A stretch of 64,000 nt of DNA from the NCBI RefSeq assembly GCF_029227855.1, contig NZ_CP074358.1. One strand, 5' to 3'. Numbering within the stretch: the stretch's first letter is position 1; every line of letters begins with the position of its first letter. The notes beneath the pieces are model-generated. The model worked only from the letters and a program-made list of their open reading frames with translations, searched no databases and was not told the origin of the DNA. This document shows positions 14,242 to 58,995 of the stretch, one piece after another. This stretch comes from Escherichia coli (GTDB taxonomy: Bacteria; Pseudomonadota; Gammaproteobacteria; Enterobacterales; Enterobacteriaceae). The translations under genes were made by a program, and so were the position numbers.

Positions 14242-14676
14242 ATGTACGGAACATGCAAAACGCTCTGCCGGGAGCTGGCAGCAAAGTATCCGGGAGACAC
14301 GCCGCTGATGCTGCTTATCTGGTCCCCGGAAGAGATTCAGGCCCTCGCTGACGGAATGGATATTTCCCTGTCCGATCATGAAATCAGGACTGTCCTGGCG
14401 CGCCTGGAGGACATCCCGGAAGACCAGCGGACTGAATCCGGTATTTCTTCCGCCGCTGCGATGGAGATTATCAGCAACGTGAGCGAAAACCGCCAGGTGA
14501 CCGTCTCTGCTGAACTGCTGGCGTCCCTGATTCAGACTGCTGAACAGGCACTGTGGAAACGTGAATGGGCCGCCCGGGATCATGGCCTCGCCGTCCCGGA
14601 ATGCGTCACCCGCCGTCAGGCGGTGATTAATCAGGCCCGCACCCTGCTGAAAAACAACACACACGAAAACGACTGA
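14242..14676 (+). CDS. DUF1380-like leading-region protein (paralog of 16394-16816)
   Basis: Shares acidic helical pattern and RQVTV(S/P)A motif with the 16394 ORF; family assignment from memory. Confidence 0.55.
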
Positions 14677-15293
14677 TGTTATCGCCGCCTGCCCTGCGGG
14701 CGGCGATACAGGGAGAACGCTTAATCATGAACGAAAACTGCACGCTGAACGCACTGATTTGTCGTCACGCCCGCAACCTGCTGCTGGCGCAGGGCTGGCC
14801 GGAGGAGACGGATGTTGATCAGCGAGATCCACAGAACTATCCGGGCTGGATCAGCATTTACGTGCGGCTGGATGCGCCCCGGCTGGCGACGTTACTCGTC
14901 AACCGCCACGATTGCGTACTGCCGCCGGTCCTGGCTTCCGCCATGCAAAAACTGACCGGAACCGGGGCGGAGCTGGTACTGTCCGGCAGTCAGTGGCAGT
15001 CGCTGCCGGTACTTCCGGCAGACGGAACGCAGGTGTCTTTCCCGTATGCCGGCGAATGGCTGATCGAAGACGAAATCAGGGCTGTACTTGCGGCGGTGCG
15101 CGATGCGGTACGCAGTGTCAGTTGCCGGGTGGCAGAAGATGCACGGCGTATCCGGGCGGCGCTGACCACCACCGGTCAGACGTTGCTGACCCGCCAGACG
15201 CGCCGCTTTCGTCTGGTTGTGAAGGAAAGCGATTACCCCTGCTGGCTTGATGAAGATGACGAAAATCTGCCGTGGTGCTCGATGCCATTCTGA
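14676..15293 (+). CDS. Hypothetical protein (205 aa if coupled start TGATG at 14676; 188 aa if ATG 14727)
   Basis: Start overlaps upstream stop; alternative ATG at 14727 has gggaga RBS. Confidence 0.45.
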
Positions 15294-15505
15294 ACCGTGG
15301 CGCACGTTTTTCCTCTGTGGAAATGTACCTGGTCTGTGAGTGTGTGGAGCATATCCTGGCCAGTGGTCTGGTCTGTGATGTGCTGCGTATACCAGATGAA
15401 CCGTCCCGTCGCTGGTTTGACCGGGATATTCTGCGGGAGGTTGTTCTGGAGGCACGGGATGAAATCCGCAGCATGGCGGATGCACTGGCGAAAATCCGGA
15501 AATGA
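15272..15505 (+). CDS. Small hypothetical protein (77 aa, GTG start)
   Basis: Overlaps end of upstream ORF by 22 nt; followed by hairpin ggcgg-ggaaaaatct-ccgcc with T-rich tail. Confidence 0.3.
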
Positions 15506-15921
15506 TGACGCTGGCGGGGAAAAATCTCCGCCTTTTCCAGCCGGTCCTCGGACAGAGCACAAAGGAAGTCGCCGCCGGGTCCGCTTTACCCGGCCATGCA
15601 GGGCATGGCCTTGTGGTTTTTCAGTTATGTGGCCTCAGCGTCGTGTGCGGGCTGTGCCGTGCCTCCATCTTAGCCGGGCTGGCGTTGATGCAAGGGTACG
15701 CTTCGCCGCTGCGGTCACCCGGTCCCTCCTTCCCGTCTGCCGTGATTTTCCGGTCGTTCACCCGCTCAGATTTCGCGGTCTCACCCTGCAACTCCCGTCA
15801 GCCGTGTGCGTCAGGCTGCGGCTTCCCTTGCGCCCCTGCATCCCCGCCTGTTCGCCCGGCTTTTATGGAGGCACGGCACCGCCCGGTGTCGCGGAATATG
15901 TGAACAACAGAGGAAAACATC

Positions 15922-20264: not shown

Positions 20265-20965
20265 GTTACTGATGATGTTGTTGTTCCTGCTACTGCTACT
20301 GCTACTGCTACTGCTACTGCTACTGTTCTTCTTTTTCCTGCTGCTCTGATTCTGACTACTGCAGTGTTGTCCTGTCTGCCGGGCGCACCTTCGGCTCCCG
20401 GCTGCCTGGCGGCATCCGGTCGTCAGGCCCGACTCCGACAGGCAGCTGCTGGCGCACCTGCCAGTCTCCGCCGAACCCGCTGGCGCGGTTTCGGGCTGTC
20501 GCTACGGTCCGATGCGTGAAAACCCCGGGCTTGCAGCGACCGTTCCGGTCGCGCCACCCTTGTCGCGCCGTGGCCTGCGCTCCTGGCATCCCGGCAAAAG
20601 GCCGCCGGGATGTAAGGGGCAACGCCGTTTCGCAAACCGCGCTTCACGTCGTTGCGGCGGGTCCCTGCCCGTTGTTCTGTCCGGTGCCATTCACCTGTTT
20701 AAGCCCCTGTCGCCGGGGGCAAAGACAGCCACAACCGTCTCCGCCAGTCCAGGGGTGAAATGTACATCCCGCAAAACTTTTTGCCCAAAAGCAGGCAAAA
20801 ACTTTTGCGGTCTGCCCCCGGACAGTCGTTTCCGTCCGTGGCAGTGATGCCCCTTGCGGCGAAGGTTCTCAAAAAGGTGATGGTGAATACCGGAGGGAAC
20901 AAAAGGCAGGTCCCCGCAAAACGTCAAAACCGCGGCTCCCGAAACTCAAAAGATGATGGGGGCTG
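20265..20965. repeat. Frpo/ssi-like structured non-coding repeat, copy B (long form), immediately upstream of ssb
   Basis: Near-identical to copy C over ~620 bp; hairpin ccgcaaaactttttgcc-caaaagca-ggcaaaaacttttgcgg at 20769-20810. Confidence 0.6.
20287..20325. repeat. Hexanucleotide microsatellite (CTGCTA)x6.5
   Basis: Six perfect tandem ctgcta units plus ctg, at the 5' edge of repeat copy B; absent from copies A and C. Confidence 0.9.
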
Positions 20966-20991
20966 AAAACATCAACAGAAGGAGGCACATC

Positions 20992-21827
<836 letters not shown>

Positions 21828-25744: not shown

Positions 25745-26395
25745 GTGATTATTCTCTTTTTCTTCCTGCTCTGATTCTGACTACTGCAGTGTTGTCCTGT
25801 CTGCCGGGCGCACCTTCGGCTCCCGGCTGCCTGGCGGCATCCGGTCGTCAGGCCCGACTCCGACAGGCAGCTGCTGGCGCACCTGCCAGTCTCCGCCGAA
25901 CCCGCTGGCGCGGTTTCGGGCTGTCGCTACGGTCCGATGCGTGAAAACCCCGGGCTTGCAGCGACCGTTCCGGTCGCGCCGCCTCTGTCGCGCCGTGGCC
26001 TGCGCTCCTGGCATCCCGGCAAAAGGCCGCCGGGATGTAAGGGGCAACGCCGTTTCGCAAACCGCGCTTCACGTCGTTGCGGCGGGTCCCTGCCCGTTGT
26101 TCTGTCCGGTGCCATTCACCTGTTTAAGCCCCTGTCGCCGGGGGCTGATACAGCCACAACCTGCCGCACTGACTGTCCAGGGTAAATGAACAGCCCGCAA
26201 AACTTTTTGCCCAGAAGCAGGCAAAAACTTTTGCGGTCTGCCCCCGGACAGTCGTTTCCGGCCGTGGCAGTGATGCCCCATGCGGCGAAGGTTCTCAAAC
26301 AGGTGATGGTGAATACCGGAGGGAACAAAAGGCAGGTCCCCGCAAAACGTCAAAACCGCGGCTCCCGAAACTCAACAGATGATGGGGGCTGAAAA
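25745..26395. repeat. Frpo/ssi-like structured non-coding repeat, copy C (long form)
   Basis: Near-identical to copy B; hairpin 26195-26236; 3' part resembles copy A (ctgatacagccacaacctgccgcactgactgtccagggtaaatgaacagccc). Confidence 0.6.
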
Positions 26396-26416
26396 CCAGA
26401 GAGAGGAGAAAGCAGG

Positions 26417-28863: not shown

Positions 28864-29247
28864 ATGGCTAAGGTGAACCTGTATATCAGCAATGATGCCT
28901 ATGAAAAAATAAATGCGATTATTGAGAAGCGTCGACAGGAAGGGGCAAGGGAAAAAGATGTCAGTTTTTCAGCAACAGCTTCAATGCTTCTTGAACTGGG
29001 GCTTCGTGTACATGAGGCTCAGATGGAGCGTAAAGAGTCTGCATTTAATCAGACTGAGTTTAATAAATTGCTTCTTGAATGCGTTGTAAAAACACAATCA
29101 TCAGTAGCGAAAATTTTGGGTATTGAGTCTCTCAGTCCTCATGTCTCCGGAAATCCAAAGTTTGAATATGCCAATATGGTTGAAGATATCAGGGAGAAGG
29201 TATCATCTGAGATGGAACGATTTTTTCCAAAAAATGATGATGAATAA
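28864..29247 (+). CDS. traM: TraM relaxosome accessory protein
   Basis: 127 aa matching recalled F TraM (MAKVNLYISNDAYEKINAIIEKRRQEGAREKDVSFSATASMLLELGL...). Confidence 0.95.
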   Translation: MAKVNLYISNDAYEKINAIIEKRRQEGAREKDVSFSATASMLLELGLRVHEAQMERKESAFNQTEFNKLLLECVVKTQSSVAKILGIESLSPHVSGNPKFEYANMVEDIREKVSSEMERFFPKNDDE

Positions 29248-50551: not shown

Positions 50552-51283
50552 ATGAAAACAAAAAAATTGATGATGGTTGCACTGGTCAGTTCCACTCTGG
50601 CCCTTTCAGGGTGTGGTGCGATGAGCACAGCAATCAAGAAGCGTAACCTTGAGGTGAAGACTCAGATGAGTGAGACCATCTGGCTTGAACCCGCCAGCGA
50701 ACGCACGGTATTTCTGCAGATCAAAAACACGTCTGATAAAGACATGAGTGGGCTGCAGGGCAAAATTGCTGATGCTGTGAAAGCAAAAGGATATCAGGTG
50801 GTGACTTCTCCGGATAAAGCCTACTACTGGATTCAGGCGAATGTGCTGAAGGCCGATAAGATGGATCTGCGGGAATCTCAGGGATGGCTGAACCATGGTT
50901 ATGAAGGCGCAGCAGTTGGTGCAGCGTTAGGTGCCGGTATCACCGGATATAATTCCAGTTCTGCCGGTGCCACACTCGGTGTGGGCCTTGCTGCCGGTCT
51001 GGTGGGTATGGCTGCAGATGCGATGGTGGAAGATGTGAACTATACCATGATCACGGATGTGCAGATTGCAGAGCGTACTAAGGCAACGGTGACAACGGAC
51101 AATGTTGCCGCCCTGCGTCAGGGCACATCAGGTGCGAAAATTCAGACCAGTACTGAAACAGGTAACCAGCATAAATACCAGACCCGTGTGGTCTCAAATG
51201 CGAACAAGGTTAACCTGAAATTTGAAGAGGCGAAGCCTGTTCTCGAAGACCAGCTGGCCAAATCAATCGCAAATATTCTCTGA
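50552..51283 (+). CDS. traT: TraT surface-exclusion / serum-resistance lipoprotein (243 aa)
   Basis: Lipobox LALSGCGA; start moved to [14 protein letters not shown]. Confidence 0.95.
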
Positions 51284-51535: not shown

Positions 51536-53725
51536 ATGAGTTTTAACGCAAAGGATATGACCCAGGGCGGTCAGATTGCGTCCATGCGTATCCGCATGTT
51601 CAGCCAGATCGCCAATATCATGCTTTACTGCCTGTTTATTTTTTTCTGGATACTCGTTGGTCTGGTTTTATGGGTAAAAATAAGCTGGCAGACGTTTGTG
51701 AACGGCTGTATTTACTGGTGGTGTACCACGCTGGAAGGCATGCGGGATTTAATCAAGTCCCAGCCGGTCTATGAGATCCAGTATTACGGCAAAACCTTCC
51801 GGATGAATGCTGCTCAGGTACTGCATGATAAATATATGATCTGGTGCGGAGAGCAGCTATGGTCCGCATCCGTTCTGGCCACAGTTGTGGCACTGGTTAT
51901 TTGCCTGATTACCTTCTTTGTTGTCTCCTGGATTCTGGGGCGTCAGGGTAAACAACAGAGCGAAAATGAAGTCACAGGTGGTCGTCAGCTGACAGACAAT
52001 CCGAAAGACGTTGCCCGGATGCTGAAAAAAGACGGCAAGGACTCCGATATCCGGATTGGCGACCTGCCGATTATCCGGGATTCTGAAATCCAGAACTTCT
52101 GTCTGCACGGCACGGTCGGGGCCGGTAAGTCGGAAGTTATCCGTCGTCTGGCCAACTACGCCCGTCAGCGCGGTGATATGGTGGTGATTTATGACCGTTC
52201 AGGGGAATTTGTTAAAAGTTACTATGATCCCTCCATCGATAAGATCCTGAATCCGCTGGATGCCCGCTGTGCCGCCTGGGATTTATGGAAGGAGTGTCTG
52301 ACACAGCCGGATTTTGATAATACGGCAAATACCCTGATCCCGATGGGCACAAAAGAGGACCCGTTCTGGCAGGGTTCAGGACGTACCATTTTTGCGGAAG
52401 CGGCGTACCTGATGCGTAATGACCCCAACCGCAGCTACAGCAAACTGGTGGACACACTGCTTTCCATCAAAATCGAAAAACTGCGTACCTTCCTGCGTAA
52501 TTCACCGGCGGCCAACCTGGTGGAAGAGAAAATTGAGAAAACGGCGATTTCCATCCGTGCTGTGCTGACCAACTACGTGAAAGCCATCCGTTACCTGCAG
52601 GGGATTGAGCATAACGGTGAGTCTTTTACCATCCGTGACTGGATGCGGGGTGTCCGGGAAGATCAGAAAAACGGCTGGCTGTTTATCTCGTCGAATGCCG
52701 ACACCCATGCCTCCCTGAAGCCGGTGATCTCCATGTGGCTGTCCATTGCCATTCGTGGTCTGCTGGCAATGGGAGAAAACCGTAACCGTCGTGTGTGGTT
52801 TTTCTGTGATGAGCTACCCACGTTACACAAACTGCCGGACCTGGTGGAGATCCTGCCGGAAGCCCGTAAGTTCGGTGGCTGTTATGTGTTTGGTATCCAG
52901 TCCTATGCCCAGCTGGAAGATATCTACGGTGAGAAAGCGGCTGCCACGCTGTTTGACGTCATGAACACCCGTGCCTTTTTCCGTTCTCCCAGCCATAAGA
53001 TTGCAGAGTTCGCTGCCGGTGAGATTGGTGAGAAAGAGCACCTGAAAGCCAGCGAGCAGTACTCCTACGGTGCTGATCCGGTACGTGACGGGGTATCGAC
53101 CGGTAAGGATATGGAGCGCCAGACGCTGGTCAGTTATTCCGACATTCAGTCTCTGCCGGATTTGACCTGTTATGTCACCCTGCCCGGACCGTATCCGGCA
53201 GTAAAACTCTCACTGAAATATCAGGCACGTCCGAAGGTTGCCCCTGAGTTTATTCCGCGTGACATCAACCCGGAAATGGAGAACCGCCTGAGCGCCGTAC
53301 TTGCCGCAAGGGAAGCAGAAGGTCGTCAGATGGCCAGCCTCTTCGAACCGGATGTGCCGGAAGTTGTTTCCGGAGAAGACGTGACTCAGGCTGAACAGCC
53401 GCAACAGCCGCAACAGCCGCAACAGCCGCAACAGCCGCAACAGCCGGTGTCTCCTGCCATCAACGATAAGAAGTCAGATTCAGGTGTGAATGTTCCGGCA
53501 GGGGGGATCGAGCAGGAGCTGAAAATGAAACCGGAAGAAGAGATGGAACAGCAACTGCCACCCGGGATCAGTGAATCCGGTGAAGTGGTGGATATGGCCG
53601 CTTATGAGGCATGGCAACAGGAAAATCATCCGGACATCCAGCAGCAGATGCAGCGTCGTGAAGAGGTGAACATTAATGTGCACCGGGAGCGCGGGGAGGA
53701 TGTTGAGCCGGGAGATGATTTCTGA
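51536..53725 (+). CDS. traD: TraD type IV coupling protein
   Basis: 729 aa; N-terminal TM segments, Walker [10 protein letters not shown]-terminal (QQP)n tail. Confidence 0.95.
53393..53446 (+). repeat. 9-bp tandem repeat (caacagccg x6, first unit gaacagccg) encoding the TraD QQP tail
   Basis: Read directly from sequence; translates to [18 protein letters not shown]. Confidence 0.9.
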
Positions 53726-56700
53726 TGATGAGTATCGCGCAGGTCAGATCGGCCGGAAGTGCCGGTAACTATTATACCGACAAGGATAATTACTATGTGC
53801 TGGGCAGCATGGGAGAACGCTGGGCCGGCAGGGGGGCTGAACAGCTGGGACTGCAGGGCAGTGTCGATAAGGATGTTTTTACCCGTCTTCTGGAGGGAAG
53901 GCTGCCGGACGGAGCGGATCTAAGCCGCATGCAGGATGGCAGTAACAGGCATCGTCCCGGCTACGACCTGACCTTCTCCGCCCCCAAAAGTGTCTCCATG
54001 ATGGCCATGTTAGGTGGCGATAAGCGCCTGATTGATGCACATAACCAGGCCGTGAACTTTGCTGTTCGTCAGGTGGAGGCGCTGGCCTCCACACGGGTGA
54101 TGACGGACGGACAGTCAGAAACGGTGCTGACCGGTAATCTGGTGATGGCACTGTTTAACCACGACACCAGTCGCGATCAGGAACCACAGTTACACACGCA
54201 TGCGGTGGTGGCTAATGTCACGCAGCATAACGGTGAGTGGAAGACACTGAGCAGTGACAAAGTGGGGAAAACGGGGTTCATTGAGAATGTGTACGCTAAT
54301 CAGATTGCCTTTGGCAGGCTCTATCGGGAAAAACTGAAAGAGCAGGTTGAGGCGCTGGGCTATGAAACCGAAGTGGTGGGTAAGCACGGTATGTGGGAGA
54401 TGCCGGGCGTACCGGTGGAGGCCTTTTCCGGACGCTCACAGGCTATCCGAGAGGCCGTCGGGGAAGATGCCTCGCTGAAATCCCGGGATGTGGCGGCACT
54501 GGATACGCGAAAATCCAAACAGCACGTCGATCCTGAAGTCAGAATGGCTGAATGGATGCAGACGCTGAAGGAAACCGGGTTCGACATCCGGGCATATCGT
54601 GACGCGGCGGATCAGCGTGCGGAGACCCGCACGCAGGCGCCCGGGGCTGTTTCACTGGAGGGGCCGGATGTGCAGCAGGCGGTGACACAGGCGATTGCCG
54701 GATTAAGTGAACGAAAAGTGCAGTTTACGTACACGGACGTGCTGGCCAGAACAGTCGGCATACTGCCGCCGGAAAATGGTGTGATTGAACGGGCACGCGC
54801 CGGTATCGATGAGGCCATCAGCCGTGAGCAGCTCATCCCCCTCGATCGTGAGAAGGGGCTGTTCACGTCCGGGATTCATGTGCTCGATGAGCTGTCAGTC
54901 CGGGCACTCAGTCGTGACATCATGAAACAGAACCGGGTGACCGTACATCCGGAGAAAAGTGTCCCCCGGACGGCCGGTTACAGCGATGCGGTCAGTGTTT
55001 TGGCACAGGATCGCCCGTCGCTGGCTATTGTGTCCGGGCAGGGCGGTGCAGCCGGGCAGCGTGAGCGGGTGGCGGAGCTGGTCATGATGGCCCGGGAGCA
55101 GGGGCGGGAGGTGCAGATTATCGCCGCTGACCGTCGCTCGCAGATGAACCTGAAGCAGGATGAACGGCTGTCCGGTGAGCTGATAACCGGACGTCGTCAG
55201 CTGCAGGAGGGCATGGCCTTCACGCCGGGCAATACTGTTATCGTTGACCAGGGCGAAAAACTCTCCCTGAAAGAGACGTTAACCCTGCTGGACGGTGCTG
55301 CACGTCATAACGTACAGGTCCTGATAACCGACAGCGGGCAGCGAACCGGTACAGGCAGTGCACTGATGGCCATGAAAGATGCCGGGGTGAACACATATCG
55401 CTGGCAGGGGGGAGAACAGCGGCCGGCCACCATCATCAGTGAACCGGACCGTAATGTCCGCTATGCCCGGCTGGCAGGAGATTTTGCGGCCAGCGTGAAA
55501 GCCGGAGAAGAGAACGTGGCACAGGTCAGCGGGGTACGGGAACAGGCCATACTGACACAGGCCATTCGCAGTGAGCTGAAAACACAGGGCGTGCTCGGAC
55601 GCCCGGAGGTAACCATGACCGCCCTGTCGCCGGTCTGGCTGGACAGCCGGAGCCGTTATCTGCGGGATATGTACCGTCCGGGGATGGTGATGGAGCAGTG
55701 GAACCCGGAGACACGCAGTCATGACCGCTATGTTATCGACCGGGTGACGGCGCAGAGTCACAGCCTGACCCTGCGGGATGCGCAGGGTGAAACGCAGGTG
55801 GTGCGTATTTCCTCCCTGGACAGCAGCTGGTCGCTGTTCCGGCCGGAAAAAATGCCGGTGGCAGACGGCGAGCGACTGAGGGTGACAGGGAAAATTCCCG
55901 GACTCCGCGTCTCCGGCGGTGACCGCCTGCAGGTGGCATCCGTCAGTGAAGATGCGATGACGGTTGTTGTGCCGGGGCGGGCTGAACCGGCCTCCCTGCC
56001 TGTGAGCGATTCACCATTCATGGCACTGAAGCTGGAGAACGGCTGGGTGGAAACGCCAGGGCATTCCGTCAGCGACAGTGCGACGGTTTTTGCCTCCGTC
56101 ACACAGATGGCAATGGACAATGCCACCCTGAACGGTCTGGCCCGCAGTGGTCGTGATGTCCGGCTGTATTCCTCACTGGATGAAACCCGTACTGCGGAAA
56201 AACTTGCCCGCCATCCCTCCTTTACGGTGGTTTCTGAGCAGATAAAGGCGCGTGCCGGTGAGACATTGCTGGAAACCGCTATCAGTCTGCAGAAAGCCGG
56301 ACTTCACACGCCGGCACAGCAGGCCATTCATCTGGCCCTTTCTGTGGTGGAAAGTAAAAACCTGGCCTTCAGCATGGTGGACCTGCTGACAGAGGCGAAG
56401 TCGTTTGCTGCAGAAGGAACCAGTTTTGTTGACCTGGGACGGGAAATCAATACGCAGATAAAACGCGGTGATTTACTGCATGTGGATGTGGCAAAAGGCT
56501 ATGGCACAGACCTGCTGGTTTCCCGTGCGTCGTATGAGGCAGAAAAGAGCATTCTTCGCCATATTCTCGAAGGTAAGGAGGCGGTCACGCCGCTGATGGA
56601 GAGAGTACCTGGCGAACTCATGGAGAAACTGACATCAGGACAGCGTGCCGCCACCCGCATGATACTGGAAACGTCCGACCGTTTCACGGTGGTGCAGGGC

Positions 56701-58995
56701 TATGCCGGTGTGGGTAAGACCACACAGTTCCGGGCGGTGATGTCAGCCGTGAACATGCTGCCGGAGAGAGAGCGTCCCCGTGTCGTTGGGCTGGGGCCCA
56801 CGCACCGTGCGGTCGGGGAGATGCGCAGTGCCGGCGTGGATGCGCAGACACTGGCGTCTTTTCTGCATGACACGCAGCTGCAGCAGCGCAGCGGAGAAAC
56901 GCCGGATTTCAGCAACACGCTGTTCCTGCTTGATGAGAGCTCAATGGTGGGCAATACCGACATGGCACGGGCATACGCCCTGATTGCGGCCGGTGGCGGT
57001 CGTGCTGTGGCCAGCGGCGACACGGACCAGCTGCAGGCCATCGCGCCCGGTCAGCCTTTCCGTCTCCAGCAGACGCGCAGTGCTGTCGATGTGGCCATCA
57101 TGAAGGAGATTGTGCGTCAGACGCCGGAACTGCGGGAGGCGGTATACAGCCTGATTAACCGGGATGTGGAAAGGGCACTGTCCGGGCTTGAGAGTGTGAA
57201 ACCGTCTCAGGTGCCACGTCAGGAGGGCGCATGGGCACCGGAGCACTCCGTGACGGAGTTCAGTCACAGCCAGGAAGCGAAACTGGCAGAAGCGCAGCAG
57301 AAGTCGATGCTGAAAGGCGAGGCTTTCCCGGATGTCCCCATGACACTGTATGAAGCCATTGTCCGCGACTATACCGGCAGGACACCGAAAGCACGGGAGC
57401 AGACGCTTATTGTCACGCACCTGAATGAGGACCGGCGCGTGCTGAACAGCATGATTCATGATGCACGGGAAAAGGCCGGTGAGCTGGGGCAGGAGCAGGT
57501 CATGGTGCCTGTCCTGAACACAGCGAATATACGCGACGGGGAGTTGCGTCGTCTCTCCACCTGGGAGACACATCGGGACGCACTTGCCCTGGTGGATAAT
57601 GTGTATCACCGGATTGCCGGTATCAGCAAGGATGACGGGCTGATAACCCTGCAGGATGCGGAAGGTAACACGCGGCTGATTTCGCCCCGGGAGGCGGTGG
57701 CTGAAGGCGTCACACTGTACACTCCGGACACCATCCGGGTGGGAACCGGTGACCGGATGCGCTTCACGAAGAGTGACCGGGAGCGCGGTTATGTGGCCAA
57801 CAGCGTCTGGACGGTGACAGCGGTTTCCGGTGACAGTGTCACGCTGTCGGACGGACAGCAGACCCGGGTGATTCGCCCCGGTCAGGAGCGGGCAGAGCAA
57901 CATATTGACCTGGCCTATGCCATCACCGCCCACGGTGCGCAGGGGGCAAGTGAAACCTTTGCCATTGCGCTTGAAGGCACGGAAGGTAACCGGAAACAGA
58001 TGGCCGGCTTTGAGTCAGCCTACGTGGCCCTGTCGCGTATGAAGCAGCATGTGCAGGTGTATACCGATAACCGTCAGGGCTGGACGGATGCCATTAACAA
58101 TGCCGTACAGAAAGGAACTGCCCACGATGTGCTTGAGCCGAAATCGGACCGGGAGGTCATGAATGCAGAGCGGCTGTTCAGTACGGCGCGGGAGCTGCGG
58201 GACGTGGCGGCCGGCCGTGCCGTTCTCCGTCAGGCAGGGCTGGCCGGGGGAGACAGTCCTGCACGGTTTATTGCACCCGGGCGCAAATATCCGCAGCCGT
58301 ATGTGGCACTGCCGGCTTTTGACCGTAACGGCAAGTCAGCAGGTATCTGGCTGAACCCGCTGACCACGGATGACGGAAATGGGCTGCGGGGCTTCAGTGG
58401 TGAAGGCCGGGTGAAAGGCAGCGGGGATGCGCAGTTCGTGACCCTGCAGGGCAGCCGTAACGGAGAGAGCCTGCTGGCTGATAATATGCAGGATGGTGTC
58501 CGGATTGCCCGTGATAATCCTGACAGCGGTGTGGTGGTAAGAATCGCCGGTGAAGGTCGTCCGTGGAATCCCGGTACCATCACCGGTGGTCGCGTGTGGG
58601 GGGATATCCCGGACAACAGCGTTCAGCCGGGAGCCGGAAATGGCGAACCGGTCACGGCAGAGGTACTGGCACAGCGGCAGGCTGAAGAGGCCATCCGCCG
58701 TGAAACGGAACGCCGTGCGGATGAAATTGTCCGTAAAATGGCAGAGAACAAACCTGACCTGCCGGACGGCAAAACAGAGCAGGCTGTCAGGGATATTGCC
58801 GGGCTGGAGCGTGACCGATCTGCCATATCTGAACGGGAAGCCGCGCTGCCGGAGAGTGTACTGCGTGAACCACAACGGGTGCGGGAAGCGGTCCGGGAGG
58901 TCGCCCGGGAAAATCTGCTGCAGGAGCGACTGCAGCAGATGGAGCGGGATATGGTTCGTGACCTGCAGAAAGAGAAAACCCTGGGCGGAGACTGA
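53725..58995 (+). CDS. traI: TraI relaxase-helicase (MobF family)
   Basis: 1756 aa; N-terminal relaxase (HTH...H.H motifs), two helicase regions with Walker A GYAGVGKTT; start overlaps traD stop (TGATG). Confidence 0.97.
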   Translation: MMSIAQVRSAGSAGNYYTDKDNYYVLGSMGERWAGRGAEQLGLQGSVDKDVFTRLLEGRLPDGADLSRMQDGSNRHRPGYDLTFSAPKSVSMMAMLGGDKRLIDAHNQAVNFAVRQVEALASTRVMTDGQSETVLTGNLVMALFNHDTSRDQEPQLHTHAVVANVTQHNGEWKTLSSDKVGKTGFIENVYANQIAFGRLYREKLKEQVEALGYETEVVGKHGMWEMPGVPVEAFSGRSQAIREAVGEDASLKSRDVAALDTRKSKQHVDPEVRMAEWMQTLKETGFDIRAYRDAADQRAETRTQAPGAVSLEGPDVQQAVTQAIAGLSERKVQFTYTDVLARTVGILPPENGVIERARAGIDEAISREQLIPLDREKGLFTSGIHVLDELSVRALSRDIMKQNRVTVHPEKSVPRTAGYSDAVSVLAQDRPSLAIVSGQGGAAGQRERVAELVMMAREQGREVQIIAADRRSQMNLKQDERLSGELITGRRQLQEGMAFTPGNTVIVDQGEKLSLKETLTLLDGAARHNVQVLITDSGQRTGTGSALMAMKDAGVNTYRWQGGEQRPATIISEPDRNVRYARLAGDFAASVKAGEENVAQVSGVREQAILTQAIRSELKTQGVLGRPEVTMTALSPVWLDSRSRYLRDMYRPGMVMEQWNPETRSHDRYVIDRVTAQSHSLTLRDAQGETQVVRISSLDSSWSLFRPEKMPVADGERLRVTGKIPGLRVSGGDRLQVASVSEDAMTVVVPGRAEPASLPVSDSPFMALKLENGWVETPGHSVSDSATVFASVTQMAMDNATLNGLARSGRDVRLYSSLDETRTAEKLARHPSFTVVSEQIKARAGETLLETAISLQKAGLHTPAQQAIHLALSVVESKNLAFSMVDLLTEAKSFAAEGTSFVDLGREINTQIKRGDLLHVDVAKGYGTDLLVSRASYEAEKSILRHILEGKEAVTPLMERVPGELMEKLTSGQRAATRMILETSDRFTVVQGYAGVGKTTQFRAVMSAVNMLPERERPRVVGLGPTHRAVGEMRSAGVDAQTLASFLHDTQLQQRSGETPDFSNTLFLLDESSMVGNTDMARAYALIAAGGGRAVASGDTDQLQAIAPGQPFRLQQTRSAVDVAIMKEIVRQTPELREAVYSLINRDVERALSGLESVKPSQVPRQEGAWAPEHSVTEFSHSQEAKLAEAQQKSMLKGEAFPDVPMTLYEAIVRDYTGRTPKAREQTLIVTHLNEDRRVLNSMIHDAREKAGELGQEQVMVPVLNTANIRDGELRRLSTWETHRDALALVDNVYHRIAGISKDDGLITLQDAEGNTRLISPREAVAEGVTLYTPDTIRVGTGDRMRFTKSDRERGYVANSVWTVTAVSGDSVTLSDGQQTRVIRPGQERAEQHIDLAYAITAHGAQGASETFAIALEGTEGNRKQMAGFESAYVALSRMKQHVQVYTDNRQGWTDAINNAVQKGTAHDVLEPKSDREVMNAERLFSTARELRDVAAGRAVLRQAGLAGGDSPARFIAPGRKYPQPYVALPAFDRNGKSAGIWLNPLTTDDGNGLRGFSGEGRVKGSGDAQFVTLQGSRNGESLLADNMQDGVRIARDNPDSGVVVRIAGEGRPWNPGTITGGRVWGDIPDNSVQPGAGNGEPVTAEVLAQRQAEEAIRRETERRADEIVRKMAENKPDLPDGKTEQAVRDIAGLERDRSAISEREAALPESVLREPQRVREAVREVARENLLQERLQQMERDMVRDLQKEKTLGGD

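Follow-up and report, generated by a model that had tools for sequence, protein, structure and literature searches.

Introduction

Early comparisons of F with R100 are reported to have noted the QQP difference in TraD. A variable 'QQP motif' region in the C-terminal extensions of F-like TraD proteins was described by Lang et al. (2011, Mol Microbiol, PMC3245843, Fig. 8), who gave QPQQP for F and 23 residues for R1 and referred to its significance as 'under investigation'. In Salmonella Typhimurium, a '9 bp VNTR in traD' (PSLT104) of pSLT was sized by PCR at 5-19 copies, and several tract sizes were found within single genotypes (Hiley et al. 2019, PLoS One, PMC6459517). A literature search found no paper linking TraD QQP copy number to a phenotype.

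What is known of the function of this end of the protein concerns its last residues. The TraM tetramerisation domain is contacted by the last eight residues of TraD, Asp710-Phe717 in F (PMC7555446 section 5.4, PMC3159463). The binding of tail to TraM is weak, and avidity has been proposed as its basis, with several flexible tails of a TraD hexamer engaging the TraM tetramers on oriT (PMC7555446, PMC3159463). F-like plasmids are important vehicles of antibiotic resistance, and in their transfer TraD is the gate at which DNA is selected. Here we describe a QQP tract in an Escherichia coli sequence and compare it with its relatives at the DNA level.

Results

A perfect 9-bp array in traD of an F-like transfer region

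The window, by which we mean the whole stretch of 64,000 nucleotides of E. coli DNA that was analysed, contains the following features of the transfer region that are relevant here.

28864..29247, + strand: traM, 127 aa, relaxosome protein bound by the TraD tail (ORF)
50552..51283, + strand: traT, upstream neighbour of traD (Pfam TraT, E=4e-83)
51536..53725, + strand: traD, type IV coupling protein of the F-type transfer system, 729 aa plus stop (Pfam, TrwB structures)
52109..52132, + strand: Walker A motif GTVGAGKS of the TraD ATPase, aa 192-199 (translation)
53393..53446, + strand: 9-bp tandem array, GAACAGCCG followed by five CAACAGCCG, encoding EQP(QQP)5 (sequence, Tandem Repeats Finder)
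53725..58995, + strand: traI relaxase/helicase, downstream neighbour of traD (Pfam TrwC, TraI_2B, AAA_30, TraI_C)

The ORF that harbours the tract had been identified as TraD in the initial annotation. This is supported by Pfam matches of its product to TraD_N (PF12615, aa 32-128, E=1e-33) and TrwB_AAD_bind (PF10412, aa 172-561, E=4e-117), by the alignment of the TrwB crystal structures (1e9r/1gl6) to aa 161-573 (E=3e-47) and by its position between traT and traI. Residues G192, G195, G197 and K198 are nearly invariant in an alignment of 83 sequences. A TraD_N domain, a TrwB-like domain with Walker A motif and an acidic extension with an EPGDDF-type end are the characteristics of an F-type TraD coupling protein. 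The gene order traT-traD-traI, with traM present, is that of an F-like tra operon and is likewise annotated in related plasmids; the start codon of traI overlaps the stop codon of traD. The 127-aa traM product we take to be F-type TraM, recognised from the F sequence.

When read directly, positions 53393-53401 of the window are GAACAGCCG, and these are followed by five perfect CAACAGCCG units up to position 53446. Tandem Repeats Finder reported 53394-53446 with a period of 9, 5.9 copies, 100% matches and a score of 106. The array encodes EQP(QQP)5 in frame, at aa 620-637 of TraD. Re-reading of the sequence and translation of the ORF gave the same coordinates, units and peptide as had been described initially. 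In random sequence of 64 kb, about 3e-17 perfect five-unit arrays of 9-mers are expected by chance. On the minus strand an ORF of 76 aa (53210..53440) was considered as a gene and rejected, as it is the QQP array read on the complementary strand and has no independent support.

Only one other tandem repeat in the whole window scored 60 or higher. It consists of 6.5 copies of CTGCTA with 100% matches (20287-20325) and is located about 630 nt upstream of ssb (20953..21531). In pSLT, 10.2 copies of CCTGTT (the MLVA locus STTR10pl) occupy the equivalent place between PSLT064 and ssbB. The CTGCTA repeat probably corresponds to this locus in position, with another unit. Two pairs of direct repeats were also observed in the leading region, 20330-20629 with 25755-26054 (300 nt, 98%) and 20758-20970 with 26184-26396 (213 nt, 97%). 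In both pairs the two copies are about 5.4 kb apart, and they bracket the ssb, parB-like, psiB and psiA genes.

Copy number varies between near-identical plasmids

A query of 626 nt around the tract matched 3,982 plasmid records, from which a spread sample of 58 was taken. In 57 of the 58 plasmids the difference in length between matched span and query was a multiple of 9 nt, which implies about 1-17 units. For the 60 closest records (at least 98.9% identity over 4,465 nt) the implied counts were 3-28, with modes at 9-10. Such span arithmetic on BLAST matches is valid for one of the two codon lineages described below (CCG) and under-counts the other (CCA) by one unit, because the left flank of the latter (LFEPEVASGED) is shorter by 9 nt (3 aa); this was corrected by direct reading. 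In total 35 arrays from complete plasmids, metagenome contigs and pSLT were read directly and contained 2-28 units, with changes in whole 9-nt units throughout, some individual counts being derived from assemblies that may mis-size repeats. The first unit encodes EQP and each of the remaining units encodes QQP, and 34 of the 35 arrays stay in frame, the exception being pUS03_1. The largest array, of 28 units, was found in pRHB42-C22_2, the annotation of which gives traD as intact. Copy numbers were unevenly distributed, with modes near 2 and 9-10 in our samples, and selection as well as ancestry could be the source of this.

The speed of change can be judged from close relatives. Over 44.5 kb, two E. 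albertii plasmids differ by 3 substitutions, 2 single-nucleotide gaps and an 18-nt gap in the tract, so that one has 11 units and the other 9. K. pneumoniae plasmids with identical alignment scores were split into 9-unit and 10-unit alleles. A repeat number that varies among F-like plasmids had been anticipated from the sequence of the window, and the comparison bears this out with 2-28 units and with near-identical plasmids that differ by two. The tract is thus a VNTR, with identical units arranged head to tail and a number of units that differs between otherwise near-identical sequences. In the same pair of E. albertii plasmids, traH (locus ~14275-15648) is annotated in one (L002) and is absent from the gene table of the other (L001). 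One of the two single-base gaps, which lie outside the tract, may be a traH frameshift or a homopolymer error.

Other searches were less productive. Scanning genome contigs for the left flank plus the first unit gave only 2 loci. A protein search with the C-terminal 171 aa gave mostly TraD fragments, many of them cut inside the tract; it was unsuited to unit counting and was replaced by the analysis of complete plasmids. Many database proteins named 'TraD, partial' have their start or their end inside or beside the QQP tract; the clusters to which they belong (P0014, P0020-P0022, P0028, P0046, P0048, P0055-P0057, P0059 and P0066) comprise up to several hundred members. Contig breaks at the tract thus seem to be routine in short-read assemblies.

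We also looked at the tract position in other TraD proteins. In pSLT of LT2 the homologous position is occupied by GAACAGCCG, nine CAACAGCCG units and one CAACAGCCA unit, 11 units together. In distant TraDs, for instance those of Serratia, this position is taken by non-repetitive sequence that is P/V/A-rich or Q/P-rich and varies in length, and a search of 148 representatives from more distant T4CP clusters found no tandem peptide repeats. The array is thus restricted to the F/R1/R100/pSLT-like group.

Two codon lineages and hybrid arrays

The units belong to two codon lineages, CCG (CAACAGCCG) and CCA (CAACAGCCA). The right flank of the CCG lineage encodes VSPAIND, and the flanks of the CCA lineage encode PEVASGE(D/G)VTQA on the left and VSSVIND on the right. 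Arrays of the E. coli type, with F/R1/R100-like flanks, consist of CCG units only, of CCA units only or of a block of CCA units with a block of CCG units after it; the two unit types are never interspersed. Only two exceptions to this homogeneity were observed, a CCT second unit in a 2-unit allele (L005) and the terminal CCA unit in pSLT. One contig with an F-like traD and at least 8 CCA units (CAAGKF010000127.1, L021) has been assigned to a Lachnospiraceae metagenome-assembled genome, most likely through mis-binning of an enterobacterial plasmid contig.

A scan of metagenomes for the CCA-to-CCG junction yielded 29 matches. Fifteen of these were set aside as unrelated Q/P-rich genes from environmental samples, and 14 were traD loci with hybrid arrays (contigs L023-L027, L032-L034, L037-L039, L041, L045 and L047), 12 of them intact with both flanks. 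All 12 intact hybrids have a single switch from CCA to CCG, the left flank of the CCA lineage and the right flank of the CCG lineage. Six hybrids with identical flanks vary in the size of both blocks (3+4, 2+5, 5+4, 5+6, 6+6 and 13+2). Homogeneous blocks whose sizes vary independently are as predicted by local slippage after at least one crossover inside the array. Judged from their sequences, the hybrid arrays are a record of recombination inside the tract, which was probably followed by slippage.

The single out-of-frame array was found in pUS03_1 (L006, CP048866.1, 2285-2470). It consists of 10 CCA units, the dinucleotide CT, GAACAGCCA, 4 CCA units and 2 CCG units. This corresponds to a duplication of 92 nt, which includes 2 nt of the left flank and puts traD out of frame; the record has no annotated traD. 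Either the allele is a genuine null or the array was misassembled. In this plasmid the sequence changes from the CCA to the CCG parental type precisely at the tract. Mosaicism extends over the whole tra region, with about 25 switches of type in 4.6 kb.

The tract lies in a predicted disordered linker upstream of the TraM contact

An AlphaFold2 model of TraD was built on the alignment of 83 sequences and had a mean pLDDT of 88.6. From it, together with the sequence, the following parts of the C-terminal extension were delimited.

53372..53551, + strand: predicted disordered linker with the QQP tract, aa 613-672 (pLDDT <50; composition)
53552..53677, + strand: small helical module, aa 673-714, with helices 687-696 and 699-713 (AlphaFold2, confident prediction)
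53699..53722, + strand: extreme C-terminal tail DVEPGDDF, aa 722-729 (sequence; counterpart of F TraD Asp710-Phe717)

In the model the extension runs from a helix (579-603) through the disordered linker (613-672) and the helical module (approximately 673-714) to a disordered tail. The pLDDT was below 50 at aa 613-672 and 715-729 and averaged above 90 in the remainder of the protein; this call of disorder rests on the AlphaFold confidence, and the extension is covered by few of the aligned sequences. The composition is in line with it. In the extension (aa 574-729) 72% of the residues are disorder-promoting and the net charge is -21, compared to 55% and +1 in the ATPase core. The helical module had a mean pLDDT of about 76-93 in 10-residue blocks, with its last four residues in a lower-scoring block, and the corresponding segment is conserved in the C-termini of distant TraDs.

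The initial annotation had placed the tract in the C-terminal tail that interacts with TraM, and had suggested that the repeat number may tune this interaction. The tract is indeed inside the C-terminal extension, but it is outside the TraM-binding element: the contact residues are the last 8 aa (722-729), and the tract ends 84 residues upstream of them. The segment of 92 aa that follows the tract was constant in length and in its C-terminal ending in every intact allele that we read, from 2 to 28 units (the frameshifted pUS03_1 excepted). Copy number therefore does not co-vary with the determinant of TraM specificity.

Discussion

We consider it probable that the array is a slippage-prone, in-frame VNTR in traD which encodes a length-tolerant, flexible spacer in a disordered linker. 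The acidic disordered linker with its (Gln-Gln-Pro)n stretch would join the membrane-anchored hexameric ATPase body to the helical module and the tail by which TraM is captured on oriT. As a flexible spacer it would give the six tails of a TraD hexamer the reach needed to contact TraM tetramers. Since the units have the same DNA sequence, whole units could be gained and lost by replication slippage, and unequal or homologous recombination within the array may sometimes add or remove units as well. Whole-unit changes of this kind would always preserve the reading frame. TraD presumably tolerates a wide range of linker lengths, and the copy number would for that reason drift quickly, mostly as a mutational by-product and not as a set-point. 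Near-neutrality of the tract is inferred from the wide range of alleles among plasmids predicted by MOB-suite to be conjugative.

It seems unlikely to us that the copy number is an adaptive tuning knob, that is, that it sets the reach or avidity of the tails for TraM on oriT and is selected for transfer efficiency or for a balance of self-transfer against the mobilisation of other plasmids. An influence of linker length is plausible, since avidity from several flexible tails has been proposed for the weak TraM binding (PMC3159463). Removal of C-terminal residues is described to alter efficiency and mobilisation range in the passage of PMC3338209 that cites Sastre 1998, pSLT genotypes differ in their copy-number range (PMC6459517, Table 1), and a Q/P-rich segment is kept at the tract position in divergent F-like TraDs. 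However, the TraM-contact residues and the whole distal 92 aa are unchanged across 2-28 units, near-identical plasmids differ by 1-2 units, and a lineage-specific set-point is not evident in the copy-number data. A further reading is that the QQP array acts as an evolvable length dial, in which rapid slippage would alter the reach of the six disordered tails and so produce donor subpopulations that differ in self-transfer efficiency, mobilisation promiscuity or susceptibility to RNA phages; through its perfect homology the array would also be a preferred crossover point for swapping TraM-recognition modules between plasmid lineages. This we regard as quite unlikely.

Another reading, to which we give a low probability, is that the array matters mainly through its perfect homology, at which crossovers between divergent traD lineages take place, so that ATPase body and C-terminal module are shuffled. 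The 12 intact hybrids, with flanks from different lineages on the two sides, and the parental switch exactly at the tract in pUS03_1 are what one would expect from such a joint. On the other hand, the tra region is mosaic everywhere, and the hybrids could all stem from one event. Moreover, a role as recombination joint is compatible with the slippage-prone spacer and is not an alternative function.

Diversification driven by phages, in which variation in the length of the extension would affect how RNA phages such as R17 enter by way of TraD, and would be maintained by phage pressure, is in our opinion very improbable. Plasmid-specific differences in TraD-dependent R17 infection have been reported, and the authors pointed to C-terminal heterogeneity including the QQP region and suggested phage resistance as a driver of T4CP diversification (Lang et al. 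2011, PMC3245843). This was purely a suggestion there and the phenotype was not tied to the repeat, and our copy-number data give no association with host or phage. Finally, assembly or sequencing errors could in principle produce differences in copy number, as short-read assemblies evidently break at the tract, many TraD fragments start or end inside it and one record (pUS03_1) has an out-of-frame duplication, but because copy number varies among thousands of complete plasmids that were sequenced in many laboratories and on many platforms, in the Sanger-era sequences of F and R1 (PMC3245843) and in PCR fragment sizes (PMC6459517), an artefact is excluded as a general explanation and we give it almost no weight.

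If linker length affected the efficiency or specificity of transfer, plasmid spread could vary simply through the rapid mutation of a repeat. At present the practical use of the tract is more modest. It can serve as a plasmid typing marker, as is already done for pSLT, and the CCA and CCG unit types are a marker of recombination between traD lineages. It also calls for caution in assembly and annotation: contigs break at the tract, and some records may carry a mis-sized or frameshifted traD.

The array shares with the phase-variable simple-sequence contingency loci a coding tandem repeat that is hypermutable by slippage. Contingency loci switch expression ON and OFF by frameshift or by altered promoter spacing, whereas the 9-nt unit of traD keeps the frame, with one aberrant allele (pUS03_1). 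With a unit of 9 nt and 34 of 35 arrays in frame, we rejected phase variation as a reading of this locus. FtsK, a related membrane-anchored hexameric DNA translocase, has a low-complexity, P/Q-rich, length-variable, disordered linker that joins the membrane domain to the motor. Unlike this, the TraD linker joins the motor to a partner-binding tail, and we claim no homology between the two linkers.

The closest described systems are the QQP region of Lang et al. and the pSLT tract. With the former the window shares the protein, the position and the motif, and nothing essential differs; by our count F has 2 units and R1 has 8, and the 17 residues of the window correspond to 6. Lang et al. compared a handful of proteins, without the DNA units, the codon lineages, the hybrid arrays and the range of 2-28 units. 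The pSLT tract is homologous to that of the window, although the flanking protein has diverged and the pSLT TraD tail ends in KDEPEPGDDF; Hiley et al. used it as a typing marker, without a functional reading. The QQP tract and its variability were thus already known, and the finding in the window is real but ordinary. What we add to these descriptions is incremental: the CCA and CCG lineages, the common hybrid arrays, the 28-unit allele, the frameshifted allele and the apparent contig breaks at the tract.
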